A stretch of 6,584 bases of DNA from positions 1 through 6,584 of the IMG/VR virus record IMGVR_UViG_2663762945_000004. One strand, written 5' to 3'. Made by a program: the position numbers and the translations under genes. Positions 590 through 5,228 of this stretch are shown here, piece by piece (position 1 is the first letter of the stretch; each line of letters opens with the position of its first letter). The notes under the pieces were generated by a model. That model was not told where the DNA came from. It searched no databases and was given only the letters and a program-made list of their open reading frames with translations. Origin of the DNA: a virus (lineage: Duplodnaviria; Heunggongvirae; Uroviricota; Caudoviricetes).

Positions 590-802
590 TTACGGCGCTG
601 TTTTAAGTCCTGCCGGGATTTCGTTATTATCCATGTGAATAACTTTATCGACCGGATAACAGTTGCCGGGAATTTTCTGTTCCGCTGCGGCAGCCGTGCA
701 TTCTTTCATTGAACCGTAAATGTCAATAACCAGATTAACAGGCTCGCCAGTATTAAGATAAACTGTCAGAGCGAGTGCAAATGCTGTATTCACTGCCAGC
801 AT
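590..802 (-). CDS. Small hypothetical protein (about 70 aa from internal Met; ORF extends to 847)
   Basis: Minus-strand ORF with stop at 590. Hydrophobic N-terminal stretch (MLAVNTAFALALTVYL) from the ATG at 802. Neither candidate start (847 or 802) has a well-spaced Shine-Dalgarno. Start at 802 would overlap the upstream ORF by 13 nt. Confidence 0.25.
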   Translation of the reverse strand: MLAVNTAFALALTVYLNTGEPVNLVIDIYGSMKECTAAAAEQKIPGNCYPVDKVIHMDNNEIPAGLKTAP

Positions 803-978
803 CCTTTTTGCATCAGACGTAAACGGGCCAGCATTGAAACAATGCATATTTGATTTAATAGCTCCCGTTCGTGTTTTCTCTTATTAATAGCATCTTCAGT
901 AAATACAGGGTTACTGATTCTGACACCAATTTCAAAGCAACCTTCAGACGTATTAACGTTTGGTAATAACGTTTCCAT
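790..978 (-). CDS. Small hypothetical protein (62 aa)
   Basis: ATG at 978 preceded by GAGGA with 7-nt spacing; the SD overlaps the TGA stop of the upstream Rha-family gene (989-991), suggesting co-transcription and coupling. No family recognised. Confidence 0.4.
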   Translation of the reverse strand: METLLPNVNTSEGCFEIGVRISNPVFTEDAINKRKHERELLNQICIVSMLARLRLMQKGCWQ

Positions 979-1546: not shown

Positions 1547-1715
1547 GATGGCAGCCTCCGCGATGAATTTGATTAACTCACCACCGAGGTTTTCCACGAC
1601 CATAAGGGTGGTGAGACGTACAGGGGTGGAAATACCGGTCATCACGGAACCCGGCCAGCCTTGCGGCAGCCCTGCACGCCCCACCATAATGCGAATGTGG
1701 CTGTGCTTAACGCAT

Positions 1716-1738
1716 AAAAAAACCGCCTGAGCGCGGTT
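1716..1738 (-). terminator. Putative intrinsic terminator on the minus strand (hairpin plus U-tract)
   Basis: Plus strand reads aaaaaaaccgcctgagcgcggtt. On the minus-strand transcript this is a stem AACCGC / GCGGUU (4 GC + 2 AU pairs) with a 6-nt loop, followed by a run of 7 U. The stem is short, so strength is uncertain. It lies about 170 nt upstream of the Rha start at 1546. Confidence 0.4.
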
Positions 1739-1865
1739 ATGCGCCGTGAATGATTTCGGGTTTCCACGCCCGGCACCCGTTTTATAAGGTGCAGGCGAAC
1801 TATAATTCCACCCGTTCTGGTTTTCAATAGCTACATTCAACATTTTCTCTCACCTTTCATCACCG

Positions 1866-2021
1866 AAGTGAATTTTGTGATGCGGTGCCTGGTGCCTCCA
1901 GGTGACGTTAACCAGTTAACAATTAACGCCGGATACAGAGAACCCACCCATAACACACTGTTTTTGGTTTTAACTGTTCCGCGTGCGCTTAGCCGCATTC
2001 ACCGCATCACAAAATTCACTT
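1866..2021. repeat. Perfect 22-bp inverted repeat (arms 1866-1887 and 2000-2021) flanking a 112-bp spacer
   Basis: Left arm aagtgaattttgtgatgcggtg is the exact reverse complement of right arm caccgcatcacaaaattcactt. The spacer contains a small hairpin (cctgg tgcct ccagg, 1888-1902) and two GTTAAC palindromes. No convincing ORF overlaps it. Confidence 0.85.
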
Positions 2022-2383
2022 TAAAAAGGGCGGCAGAGCAGTCACGGAGTAAAACTGATACCGCCAAACGTCACCAGAAAATTGATAACAGAGGGCGTTG
2101 CAGCGGAGTTGTCACTTAAGCGTATGGTCAACCTGACAACCCGGCGTCCTCAACGGGGGAAGGAATAACCCCGCCATACTTACCGCCGCGCCATTTCGCG
2201 GATTGCCACAACCGGAAGCGCACGGTCGAATTAAATTTAACGACAAAGTACAGAGAGACGAGCTTCTCCGTGCGTTTTCGTGTTATGCCCTGACTTTTCA
2301 GGGATATATCCTTTTCAGTAAACTGTCAGTGCCGGATTCTTATCCGTGTCCGGCGCACGCACTCTACCTCACCTGTGAATAAA

Positions 2384-2758
2384 TTAATGATTAATTGATA
2401 TTTTGTTGTTTGATTCAACTTTCCCATCGGATGTGTGATGCTTTAAATCACAGGAATTAATACTGCTTGCTGTAAAATGATTTTCAAGGGGAGCTATTCG
2501 AATCCCTTTCTTTTTCATTAACAAGCCAAATCCTTTATTAATGATGTCCATTAATTCCAGAAAGTATTTTTCATGTAAATCCTGGTTATCAGAGAGCTGC
2601 TTCTCTTCGTACAGCCCGATAAAGGCTCGGCGTACGTTACCGGATATATTGTCGATGGTTTCTTTTTCTACGGTACTCAGGTCAAGAGTCGCCAGTTGAG
2701 AGCGAACCACATTCGATGCCATTTCCTGGAATGGTACTGGTAAATCTTTAAATTCCAT
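2384..2758 (-). CDS. Hypothetical protein (124 aa from Met at 2758; ORF extends to 2770), unknown function
   Basis: ATG at 2758 has a GAGGT SD with about 6-nt spacing. The alternative ATG at 2770 overlaps the upstream ORF stop by 1 nt (TGATG). Protein MEFKDLPVPFQEMASNVVRSQLATLDLSTVEKETIDNISGNVRRAFIGLYEEK..., no family recognised. The 3' two-thirds (about 2381-2580) is about 30 percent GC by hand count, far below the neighbours. Confidence 0.55.
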   Translation of the reverse strand: MEFKDLPVPFQEMASNVVRSQLATLDLSTVEKETIDNISGNVRRAFIGLYEEKQLSDNQDLHEKYFLELMDIINKGFGLLMKKKGIRIAPLENHFTASSINSCDLKHHTSDGKVESNNKISINH

Positions 2759-2769
2759 CGTCAACCTCA

Positions 2770-2922
2770 TCAGTCGGAGTTTCTTGCTAACCAGCGACGC
2801 GCGCCAGCTTCGGTTTTAAACGTTTTGCTTTTGGTATACGTCATCGCGGTGAACGTACCGTCCTGGTTGGGGAACACGCCACATACCAGAGATTCGCTGT
2901 TGCCAAGATCGATAGTATCCAT
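2770..2922 (-). CDS. Small protein (50 aa from Met at 2922; in-frame ORF extends to 3003), resembles small YdaF/DUF1391-like prophage proteins
   Basis: ATG at 2922 preceded by GAGGT at 4-nt spacing. An upstream in-frame ATG at 3003 also has a GAGG SD, so the start is ambiguous. Sequence MDTIDLGNSESLVCGVFPNQDGTFTAMTYTKSKTFKTEAGARRWLARNSD; the YdaF/DUF1391 resemblance is from memory and unverified. Confidence 0.5.
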   Translation of the reverse strand: MDTIDLGNSESLVCGVFPNQDGTFTAMTYTKSKTFKTEAGARRWLARNSD

Positions 2923-3098
2923 GCTGACCTCATTTCCCCTTAACGCCGGGGTAGCGGAACAAAAACCTGCTGCATAGTTATTAAAGTTGAACCCTGCCGT
3001 CATGTTCTTACGCCTCGGGCTGGCTACTTAACCCCTGACCACTGCCTGGTAACTCGAAGTATTGCCCTGCATTCTGTGGGGCGGGGTGGGTGGCAGGT

Positions 3099-3156
3099 AT
3101 ATAATGTACTTTGTGTTCATTGTTGTAAAGTACATTTAGTACATTTTGTGTGTAAA
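3099..3156 (-). promoter_or_regulatory. Putative leftward early promoter with operator-like repeats (pL/oL analogue)
   Basis: Three copies of the 7-mer ATGTACT or its reverse complement at 3104-3110 (forward), 3129-3135 and 3138-3144 (reverse). A candidate minus-strand sigma70 promoter overlaps them: -35 TTTACA (plus 3129-3124), 17-bp spacer, -10 CATTAT (plus 3106-3101). A plus-strand TATAAT also occurs at 3100-3105. Confidence 0.35.
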
Positions 3157-3219: not shown

Positions 3220-3639
3220 TTAAGAGGCTTTTTGTTTTTTCTTTCGTGCTAACTCTTCGTAAATTGCATTGTACTTCTGTTTTTTCTCTTCAAGAGTTTT
3301 TAAAAGTTCATCTGTCTCACTGTCAGGGAGCTCGTCCAGAAGGTCAATGATGATTTTTTGTCTTGGATTTAACTCCTGATAGAAACGTACCTGTCCACTT
3401 TCTTCTGTATCCTCTCCCAAAAGATAGGTTGGTGTTGTTCCTATTAGTGTTGCTAATTCCCTTAATTTCTCCCGGCGAGGAATTGTTTCGCCATTAAACC
3501 ATTTGCTAACCGCTTTTGGTGTTAATTTCATTCGACGGGCAATTTCTGCCTGCCTTCCATGTTGTTCATAACCAGCGTTTTCACAGGCTAGCGCAAGCCT
3601 ACTGGCGAACTCTTTACGCGCTTTATCTTCATGAACCAT
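3220..3639 (-). CDS. Prophage repressor, HTH XRE family (CI-like, 139 aa), no LexA-like S24 peptidase domain
   Basis: ORF-track protein has an N-terminal XRE-type helix-turn-helix (QAEIARRMKLTPKAVSKWFNGETIPRREKLRELATLIGTTPTYLLGED) and a short charged, probably helical C-terminus (EELARKKKQKAS). It is divergent from a Cro-like gene. No SD precedes the ATG, consistent with a leaderless transcript as for lambda cI from pRM. Confidence 0.85.
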   Translation of the reverse strand: MVHEDKARKEFASRLALACENAGYEQHGRQAEIARRMKLTPKAVSKWFNGETIPRREKLRELATLIGTTPTYLLGEDTEESGQVRFYQELNPRQKIIIDLLDELPDSETDELLKTLEEKKQKYNAIYEELARKKKQKAS

Positions 3640-3718
3640 AAGTTCAATGATATTCGCTCTTGAATGTACTGTCAGTTCTGTTATAGCATGTACTCAAAGT
3701 TCACATTGTGAGGGTGAT
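3640..3718. promoter_or_regulatory. Divergent promoter/operator region (pRM-like leftward, pR-like rightward)
   Basis: Two forward ATGTACT copies at 3664-3670 and 3688-3694. Candidate pR: -35 TTGAAT (3660-3665), 16-bp spacer, -10 TATAGC (3682-3687). Candidate pRM on the minus strand: -35 CTGACA (plus 3675-3670), 17-bp spacer, -10 TATCAT (plus 3652-3647), ending about 7 nt before the repressor ATG. An 11-bp perfect palindrome TCACATTGTGA (3701-3711) sits just before the cro-like SD. Confidence 0.45.
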
Positions 3719-4395: not shown

Positions 4396-4466
4396 CTCGC
4401 AATATTCATACCGGATCGCTTCCGGCAATTTGTGAGTAAAAAGATTCGGTATCAAAAGAGGTGAGT

Positions 4467-5228
4467 ATGGCTAACGCCTGGCTCAGATTATGGCATGACA
4501 TGCCAAATGACCCTAAGTGGCGAACAATTGCCAGGGTGTCAGGGCAGCCAATTGCAACAGTGATGGCAGTGTATATCCACCTCCTGGTGAGCGCGTCACG
4601 AAATGTCACGCGAGGTCACATTGAGGTCACGACAGAAGATTTGGCAAGTGCGCTCGACGTGACAGAAGAGGTAATTGATTCAATTTTGCAGACGATGCAG
4701 GGGCGGGTACTTGATGGTGATTTAATCACTGGATGGGAAAAACGCCAGGTGCTTAAAGAGGACAACGGCAATATTTCGCAAACCGCAAAATCTCCTGCAG
4801 AGCGCAAGAGGGCGCAGCGAGAGAGGGAAAGAAAGCGGGAACAAAATGGCGATTGTCACGGCGCGTCACGAAATGTCACGCATATGTCACGACGAGTCAC
4901 GACAGATAAAGATACAGATAAAGATACAGATCAAGAAGATCAAAACACTATGGTCCATGGCGTAAAAAACGCCACGAACCAGGCAGGGGATGTTCAGACC
5001 GTCAATCTTGGTCAGCCAGCAGGCACGACACCGGAAGCCGATTCAGCGTATGCGCTGAAAGCCGATTCGGGCGCTGTGCAGCAGGTGATGACCGCAAGGC
5101 CGGAGCAATCACACCAACTGCAGCAGCCCGAAGCCGATTCCGCCATTCAGCGGGAAGCCGATCGGGTAGTCCCGGAAAACACCGGGCAGTCTGTGGGACG
5201 AGTGGATTACCGGAACTCGGGCTGGTGA
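4467..5228 (+). CDS. Replication initiator-like protein (lambda O analogue) with iteron arrays inside its coding sequence
   Basis: ATG at 4467 with AGAGGTG upstream (the track starts at GTG 4461). N-terminus MANAWLRLWHDMPNDPKWRTIARVSGQPIATVMAVYIHLLVSASRN... followed by a winged-helix-like segment (TEDLASALDVTEEVIDSILQTMQGRVL). An acidic TDKDTDKDTDQEDQ linker is encoded by a tandem repeat. Two GTCAC iteron arrays lie inside the gene, as the lambda origin lies inside O. The family name is not verified. Confidence 0.65.
   Translation: MANAWLRLWHDMPNDPKWRTIARVSGQPIATVMAVYIHLLVSASRNVTRGHIEVTTEDLASALDVTEEVIDSILQTMQGRVLDGDLITGWEKRQVLKEDNGNISQTAKSPAERKRAQRERERKREQNGDCHGASRNVTHMSRRVTTDKDTDKDTDQEDQNTMVHGVKNATNQAGDVQTVNLGQPAGTTPEADSAYALKADSGAVQQVMTARPEQSHQLQQPEADSAIQREADRVVPENTGQSVGRVDYRNSGW
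4592..4636. repeat. Iteron array 1: four GTCAC(G) direct repeats at 10-11-bp spacing
   Basis: GTCAC begins at 4596, 4606, 4616 and 4627. The units are gtcacgaaat, gtcacgcgag, gtcacattgag and gtcacgacag. Confidence 0.6.
4855..4905. repeat. Iteron array 2: five GTCAC(G) direct repeats at 10-11-bp spacing (candidate replication origin core)
   Basis: GTCAC begins at 4855, 4865, 4875, 4886 and 4896. A 21-bp segment GCGCGTCACGAAATGTCACGC is shared exactly with array 1 (4592-4612 and 4861-4881). The array is immediately followed by an AT-rich tandem repeat. Confidence 0.6.
4902..4940. repeat. Tandem 12-bp repeat (acagataaagat twice, then a degenerate third copy), AT-rich, adjacent to iteron array 2
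   Basis: acagataaagat at 4902-4913 and 4914-4925, then acagatcaagaagat. It encodes the TDKDTDKDTDQEDQ linker and is placed like the AT-rich unwinding region next to the lambda ori iterons. Confidence 0.6.

Follow-up and report, generated by a model that had tools for sequence, protein, structure and literature searches.

The perfect 22-bp inverted repeat at positions 1866 to 2021 of the window (the whole stretch of 6,584 nt of viral DNA analyzed here) is, with a probability of about 0.8, the closing helix of a structured RNA domain placed directly after the small RNA DicF, by which RNA reading through DicF is cut by RNase III. The feature is the RNase III processing stem already described downstream of DicF, and in this sense it is already known. 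The present analysis itself established the helix with its position and strand, showed that it is conserved and covaries, and found it orthologous to the corresponding element of Escherichia coli K-12. The finding itself changes little: a processing site described in 1990, belonging to one of the first bacterial small RNAs, was re-identified from raw sequence. What is new, modestly, is the family relation of the element and the relation of helix length to genomic setting, the helix being short in stand-alone copies and long in many operon copies. The stem closes a conserved multi-hairpin domain that appears related to the abundant, functionally obscure STnc100 family.

A repeat search of the window returned the two arms exactly at the coordinates given by the first-pass annotation, 100% complementary and separated by a spacer of 112 nt. 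That annotation had judged the repeat too long for chance, and rightly so: the mean number of matches to the 22-mer in 200 dinucleotide-preserving shuffles was 0.00, and this control rules out a chance origin. Within the window the 22-mer is present at two sites only, with up to 3 mismatches allowed (against the same mean of 0.00 in the shuffles). By a back-of-envelope calculation, ~1e-7 inverted repeats of 22 perfect bp would be expected within 200 nt in 6.6 kb.

The window belongs to a Qin-like lambdoid prophage. The early operon of this prophage, of the dicBF type, is transcribed on the minus strand, and the gene order of the window is the same in close relatives, both E. coli genomes and phages. 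Since DicF and the surrounding genes all lie on the minus strand, the repeat must be read on that strand. The minus-strand RNA then carries, in order, the DicF hairpin, UUUUUA, the 5' arm (2021 to 2000), the 112-nt interior, the 3' arm (1887 to 1866) and the ATG at 1843 (Table 1). The closeness of the left arm to this ATG, put at first at about 20 bp upstream, holds on the minus strand only (22 nt), and the ATG is doubtful as a real start.

Table 1. Position of the inverted repeat, of the parts of the RNA domain and of neighboring genes and signals in the window.
Feature	Position	Strand	Sequence, basis or remark
DicA-like HTH repressor	3639..3220	-	
DUF1391/YdfA-like protein	3003..2770	-	
128-aa ORF	2770..2384	-	
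DicF small RNA (seed region and Rho-independent terminator hairpin)	2028..2080	-	Rfam and K-12 alignment
Terminator U-run, UUUUU and one A	2022..2027	-	entire gap between DicF hairpin and stem
Right arm of the repeat	2000-2021		CACCGCATCACAAAATTCACTT; 22 nt, repeat search of the window
5' arm of the 22-bp closing helix (RNA sense)	2000..2021	-	repeat search
Junction AAU ahead of inner hairpin 1	1997-1999	-	sequence
Inner hairpin 1	1981..1996	-	GCGGCUAAGCGCACGC; MFE and centroid folds, RNAalifold consensus
Variable central domain (hairpin 2)	1931..1980	-	sequence and length vary among relatives
Inner hairpin 3	1904..1930	-	GGCGUUAAUUGUUAACUGGUUAACGUC; single-sequence and consensus folds
Inner hairpin 4	1888..1902	-	CCUGGAGGCACCAGG; STnc100 alignment, motif scans, fold
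3' arm of the closing helix	1866..1887	-	repeat search
Left arm of the repeat	1866-1887		AAGTGAATTTTGTGATGCGGTG; 22 nt, repeat search of the window
Leader, 22 nt, from stem to candidate ATG 1843	1843..1865	-	Shine-Dalgarno-like AGGUGAGAG
Rha ORF, 284 aa	989..1843	-	first ~100 codons overlap RNA signals in 1604-1843
Sigma-70-like promoter	1827..1799	-	
c4 a1/b1 target match, sub-threshold	1805..1753	-	
isrK	1792..1716	-	65.4 bits
Terminator	1738..1721	-	
C4 antisense RNA	1691..1604	-	77.6 bits
DicB	978..790	-	
DUF1482/YdfD-like protein	847..590	-	

DicF is matched by the Rfam model RF00039 from 2079 to 2028 on the minus strand, with 76.7 bits for a gathering score of 48 (E = 3.7e-16). Its 53-nt extent was taken from the alignment to the annotated dicF of K-12 (L004:1083-1135 in our numbering of the K-12 locus). 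The stem starts 6 nt past DicF, at 2021, and the junction, CCGCCCUUUUUA followed by AAG, is common to all dicF-type relatives. The minus-strand RNA folds into a multi-branched domain of ~156 nt that is closed by the helix of the two arms and has four inner hairpins within the 112-nt interior; the minimum free energy (MFE) is -69.7 kcal/mol (z = -6.6) and none of 200 shuffles was as stable. The closing helix consists of 22 Watson-Crick pairs and is present in both the MFE and the centroid folds. The inner hairpins are not equally conserved among the relatives described below. Inner hairpin 1 is nearly invariant among the 26 relatives, and hairpin 4 is the most conserved motif, common to STnc100-type RNAs as CCGGGAGGCACCCGG. 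Compensatory changes are found at the base of the variable central domain (columns 42-44 with 101-103, e.g. AU to CG in 6 sequences), and hairpin 3 has two covarying pairs (107-127, GC to UA or AU, and 108-126, UA to GC).

The dicF-dicB spacer of K-12 (NC_000913.3, dicF at 1649382-1649434 and dicB from 1649609) aligns over the whole element, with 96.3% identity over 162 nt by blastn (L004), and folds to the same helix, of 21 bp, three of them G.U. The region is transcribed in K-12. There the 3' end of the 53-nt DicF is a Rho-independent terminator, and when RNase III processes the full-length dicBF mRNA made by read-through, another 3' end arises, that of a 72-nt DicF (Faubladier 1990, as cited in PMC5069750, PMC9438474 and PMC6582626). 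One of these three sources, a review, speaks of the “downstream processing site” of DicF, and the dicA-dicF-dicB intergenic regions are among the RNase III substrates listed in the literature. Counted from the annotated 5' end of DicF, 72 nt lead to L004:1154, i.e. to nucleotide 13 of the 5' arm, the window equivalent being 2009. Furthermore, Table S1 of Gordon 2017 (RNA-seq of an rnc deletion) contains a dicF-dicB intergenic position, 1649470, flagged “Known = Yes”; it has 0 reads in both wild-type replicates vs 26 in delta-rnc, as a coverage-ratio peak and not a mapped RNA end. This position is L004:1171, inside the element and 8 nt beyond the 5' arm. The reported processing of a ~96% identical ortholog, the 72-nt count and the delta-rnc site thus support the RNase III substrate that the first-pass annotation had proposed. 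Taken from the literature on the K-12 ortholog, the dependence on RNase III and the 72-nt product would apply to the window by analogy.

The upstream side of DicF has also been linked to RNase III: a 2023 study places a different site there, at the 5' end of a 190-nt precursor, and does not discuss the downstream one. When the region 2075-2385 of the window was folded for such an upstream site, no significant stability was found (z = -1.2). According to the review, DicF made from a plasmid without the downstream site is still functional, so that the activity of DicF in itself does not require the stem.

We propose that the fate of the transcript would be decided at the DicF terminator. If polymerase stops there, the stem would never be made and the product would be the 53-nt DicF. 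If it reads through, the arms would pair over about two helical turns and be cleaved by RNase III, an enzyme that accommodates ~22 bp and the staggered cuts of which leave 2-nt 3' overhangs. The cut in the 5' arm would fall after arm nucleotide 13, between 2009 and 2008, and make the 3' end of the 72-nt DicF; by the double-cleavage rule and the geometry of 2-nt 3' overhangs its partner would separate 1877 from 1876. Of the two base pairs that staggered RNase III cuts enclose, at least one is usually G-C, and the pairs between the two cuts predicted in the window are G12-C and U13-A. This placement inside the stem relies on secondary statements and on nucleotide counting, and would be uncertain by a few nucleotides. 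Cleavage would separate the downstream message from a DicF that carries a 19-nt tail, which would probably be trimmed back to the terminator hairpin, and an inner domain of ~132 nt would be released. The downstream message would gain a new 5' end ~10 nt into the 3' arm. This message would be that of dicB in K-12, and that of the isrK/C4/Rha module and then dicB in the window; cleavage may have an effect on these downstream genes.

Three motif scans, two over viral contigs and the third over species-representative genomes, supplied the relatives of the element. The first viral scan and the genome scan used the hairpin 4 motif, and the anchor motif of the second viral scan was inner hairpin 1. 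Twenty-six distinct elements have the arm type of the window; they come from E. coli, E. albertii, E. ruysiae, Shigella flexneri, Citrobacter braakii and viral contigs. In these 26 relatives 96.5% of the stem cells are paired, vs 33-52% when the 3' partner columns are slid by 1-3. Two stem pairs show compensatory double changes (U-A to C-G and A-U to G-C) and five vary to G.U. The single-sided stem changes amount to 41 G.U cells vs 4 A.C, or roughly 5 vs 3 when taken as independent events. This asymmetry favors selection on the minus-strand RNA, and not on the DNA or on the opposite transcript.

The second viral scan also returned the same core between entirely different long arms, e.g. CAACAGACCUUGCAAUGCAGUG (21-22 bp) and AAUCAGGAUUUGCAAUGCGGUG (20 bp). 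Over 30 distinct arm pairs, which represent three unrelated arm sequences, compensatory double changes occur at 12 of the 22 positions; an arm pair was kept in this set only if at least 18 of 22 positions were paired, which inflates the paired fraction and does not create the diversity of the arms. The first pass had looked to compensatory changes that preserve the stem as a mark of a paired RNA: such changes are present in both sets, and the arms are conserved together.

Every copy with the arm sequence of the window directly follows a DicF-family terminator hairpin. After the 3' arm, three unrelated continuations are found among relatives: dicB, another ORF or the Rha module. Similarity to relatives stops right after the 3' arm, which is a mosaic junction, and phage matches to the window start right at the edge of the arm because the continuation switches there.

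The element was found in 4642 of 5426 complete E. coli genomes (~86%), with a median of 2 copies per genome and a maximum of 9. The number of copies goes with that of lambdoid prophages, as expected where a genome has several of them. Additional copies, which were at first thought to favor a mobile element, do therefore exist, but without the unrelated, duplication-flanked insertion sites of one. In one copy (L074 46-2105) the central domain is split by ~1.9 kb with IS1-type and IS3-family transposase ORFs.

In the rows inspected the element usually has no annotation, or is annotated as an incomplete DicB pseudogene. PGAP gives part of it in one genome (L002 3075-3158, NZ_CM128597.1; about window 1875-1958) as an “incomplete cell division inhibition protein DicB” pseudogene, a label that probably stems from similarity to N-terminally extended DicB models. 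Near-identical Escherichia-type dicF-spacer DNA also appears in the records of unrelated organisms: MAGs of Veillonella parvula (L135) and Candidatus Nanosynbacter (L137), an Actinobacillus phage (H49) and Aeromonas phage AP1 (H50, MT713136.1, 254 kb), the last being 97.7% identical over 222 nt. Binning or assembly contamination is the likely origin of these.

Disparities between the window and K-12 appear downstream of the 3' arm. In K-12 and in phage Tritos dicB comes directly after the stem (K-12 L004:1295-1310), whereas in the window a module of ~0.9 kb with isrK, C4 and Rha intervenes between the stem and dicB (790-1865). The junction of this module, which resembles P1 immI, is exactly the end of the 3' arm. 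At the position equivalent to the leader of the window, K-12 has the Shine-Dalgarno sequence and the start codon of dicB (alignment with K-12 and E700025). In the 284-aa ORF the N-terminal part gives a match to Pfam Phage_ASH, and residue 120 is the first of the Rha domain. Translation of Rha probably starts at the ATG at 1545, with GGAGG 8 nt ahead of it, and the Pfam “Ash” match may be the translation of conserved RNA genes. The long Rha ORF of relatives is annotated by PGAP.

Some other features were seen along the way. In the MFE fold of the K-12 read-through RNA, the 5' seed of DicF (UGGUGACGUUU, L004:1087-1098) pairs with the first codons of dicB (AAACGUUAUUAC, 1311-1324), and the window equivalent would be DicF 2076-2065 with the dicB start at ~978-960. 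Repeats of GTACA(T/A)T and AGTACA are located at 3100-3150 and 3655-3710, on the side of the DicA-like gene (3220-3639) that faces the ydfA-like gene and on the side that faces a divergent Cro/YdaS-like gene; these resemble the operators of an immunity switch. A perfect 21-nt direct repeat, GCGCGTCACGAAATGTCACGC, is present at 4591-4611 and 4861-4881, 270 nt apart, and clusters of the motif (T/G)GTCACG at 4595-4650 and 4855-4905 lie inside a replisome-organiser-like ORF (4461..5228). The repeat and these clusters look like origin iterons in an O-like replication gene.

The position of the stem just ahead of a gene raises the possibility, which we hold to be somewhat unlikely, that the helix chiefly controls the downstream cistron, as a 5' stabilizer or translational gate switched by RNase III in the manner of the lambda N leader, the 3' end of DicF being incidental. 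The 3' arm is 22 nt before the ATG in the window and ~15 nt before the dicB ATG in K-12, other long-stem relatives have a Shine-Dalgarno sequence and ATG 30-55 nt downstream of the stem, and DicF made without the site is functional. In dicB-type relatives the helix can even be extended to ~28 pairs, the DicF U-run pairing with UUGAGGA, which contains the Shine-Dalgarno sequence of dicB. But the pairs of this extension are weak ones, A-U and G.U; the K-12 MFE fold shows only part of it, and the window, with the flank CGGUGAUG, lacks it. Moreover, the stem is constant in front of different downstream genes (dicB, another ORF or the Rha module). A role for the downstream gene is nevertheless compatible with a processing stem behind DicF, our main explanation.

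The interior of the domain leads to the STnc100/PasD RNAs, which are prophage-encoded, Hfq-associated sRNAs of enterobacteria. The Rfam model of STnc100 (RF02076) matches the window from 2016 to 1874 with 39.3 bits (E = 5e-6 for the window), i.e. below the gathering score of 47. The alignment puts the closing helix and the hairpins of the model onto those of the element. The architecture, GGUGAAU and CACCNGGAGGCACCNGGCACC are present, but the pairs of hairpin 1 become non-canonical in the alignment and the central part could not be aligned. For the K-12 copy and the relatives with the hairpin 1 of the window, no STnc100 match was obtained at the gathering level. The element and STnc100 have in common GGUGAAU, UCACCNGGAGGCACCNGGCACC and a lambdoid prophage setting, and appear to agree in the plan of a closing helix around several hairpins, but the element has a different hairpin 1, lacks a promoter and terminator of its own, being inside an operon, and has a helix of 22 instead of 4-9 bp.

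Bona fide STnc100 loci, which score well above threshold, share the GGUGAAU junction and UCACCGGGAGGCACCCGGCACC, and STnc100-type loci have a sigma-70-like promoter (TTGACA-17-TAAATT) just upstream. On the minus strand of the window nothing promoter-like was detected from DicF to the stem, nor does a U-run follow the 3' arm. The closing helix measures 4-9 bp in 76 distinct STnc100-type copies, with one copy at 11 and up to 13 if one irregularity is included, vs 20-28 pairs in dicF-type copies, and intermediate forms occur in two loci (L017 and L089). The unpaired junctions and loops GAAU, UCA and AGGCA are invariant across relatives. The long-helix copies found are embedded in longer transcripts, and some short-helix copies of the GAAUGCGGCU-type sister group adjoin a DicF-like sRNA.

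The relatives with the hairpin 1 of the window appear to form an unannotated sister group of STnc100/PasD. The similarity to STnc100 rests partly on one 22-nt motif. The reciprocal covariance-model search, in which STnc100-type loci scored 28-66 bits, was discounted as evidence of homology because these loci had been gathered using that shared motif. The mark of the family may be GGUGAAU-GCGGCU.AGCGCACGC ... CACCNGGAGGCACCNGGCACC, and many operon copies may have independently evolved unrelated helices of 18-22 bp.

Three to five STnc100-like elements were found together in some viral contigs (L019 375-987, L029 1728-2340, L067 4382-5476 and L012 2326-3362), with a spacing mostly of ~255 nt and in some cases of 400-480 nt (R1 model matches). 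In L141 and ~20 similar loci, which make up one subtype, the order is reversed: a short helix of 9-12 bp comes first, and within ~15 nt a DicF-like sRNA (GCUGUGUGUAGUC...) with its terminator. Linkage of the element with DicF-family sRNAs may therefore exist in both orders.

On this basis the 22-bp stem could be the short closing helix of the family, of at most ~9 bp, lengthened by ~14 bp, which would fit the role of an RNase III stalk. A further step, and a doubtful one, is to see in it chiefly an excision stalk for the 112-nt four-hairpin core, itself a functional RNA related to STnc100/PasD, which RNase III would release as a third product next to DicF and DicB. This would extend our preferred reading rather than replace it. 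It draws on the 39.3-bit match with helix and hairpins in matching positions, on the invariant GAAU, UCA and AGGCA, on the helix lengths of stand-alone and dicF-type copies with their intermediates, and on the abundant expression of STnc100 copies in EHEC. However, the match stays below the gathering score, much of the similarity lies in one 22-nt motif, the reciprocal search is not independent, and in K-12 the interior is depleted in the wild type (0 reads vs 26 in delta-rnc), which suggests that the released piece is degraded. In the same way we consider it improbable, though worth stating, that an RNase III stalk was grafted onto a widespread, partly annotated prophage RNA family so that a third product of ~130 nt is excised from dicBF-type operons. 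If the core were functional, operons of this type would encode one more regulator, and the division between terminator-made and RNase III-made DicF would be worth revisiting, e.g. under antitermination during prophage induction.

Readings at the level of DNA fare much worse. A protein-binding dyad had been named at first among the alternatives, and an operator, a cruciform or a recombination site for module exchange may be added to it; perfect dyad symmetry and the mosaic junction at the end of the 3' arm are in line with these. But the spacer of 112 bp far exceeds that of known dyad operators, and G.U and A.C, found in 41 and 4 cells respectively, are equivalent mismatches for a DNA repeat and not for a minus-strand RNA helix. 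In addition, the arm sequences differ wholly between subtypes while pairing is kept, which argues against a sequence-specific binding site. We regard a role as DNA as very improbable.

A MITE beside dicF with the arms as its terminal inverted repeats, another of the initial suggestions, is hardly credible: the perfect 22 bp, the short length (~156 bp), the multiple copies and the similarity that stops at the outer edge of the left arm would suit such an element, but there is no target-site duplication (flanks ...UUUUUA and CGGUGA..., on the DNA ttaaaaaggg at 2022-2031 and ttcatcaccg at 1856-1865, which do not form a direct repeat), copies with the arm of the window lie in a single context, after a DicF-family terminator hairpin, and follow lambdoid prophages in number, the arm variation is compensatory and tolerant of G.U, i.e. 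the pattern of a selected RNA helix, and the interior, a conserved structured RNA, has nothing related to a transposase.

Several other candidates were tried and rejected. The repeat is not an intrinsic terminator: the 3' arm is followed by CGGUGAUGAAAGG with no U-run, and a terminator scan found nothing there. A coding region, or a long N-terminally extended DicB, was rejected as well. The minus-strand ORF 1837..1998 has no Pfam match; the element is 153, 157, 158, 159, 160, 163, 164, 167, 170 or 172 nt long among relatives, and since these steps are not multiples of 3 the region is not coding. Repeats of the retron msr/msd kind were dismissed, with no reverse transcriptase gene nearby and the region being the DicF spacer.

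Among known systems the closest is the dicBF site of K-12, which has the same position right after the U-run of the DicF terminator, ~96% identity and the same closing helix. The two differ in that the helix of the window is fully Watson-Crick, with 22 bp vs 21 bp including three G.U in K-12, and in that isrK/C4/Rha occupies ~0.9 kb before dicB. The lambda N leader and sib, to which the stem was compared from the start, hold as functional analogies and not as homologs. What they have in common with the stem of the window is a hairpin for RNase III, placed in an early-left transcript of lambdoid type, and a cleavage that alters the fate of neighboring RNA, but there is no homology in sequence or structure. 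At sib, cleavage triggers 3' exonucleolytic decay of the int mRNA, whereas in the window the terminator hairpin of DicF would stop such decay and leave a mature sRNA. In T7 early mRNAs and in the processing stalks of rRNA, a long helix brackets or separates functional RNAs within a polycistronic transcript. The likeness to the helix of the window would lie in the double cut with a 2-nt 3' overhang, by which units are released; the difference is that those helices are usually irregular hairpins or join sequences on both sides of a large RNA.
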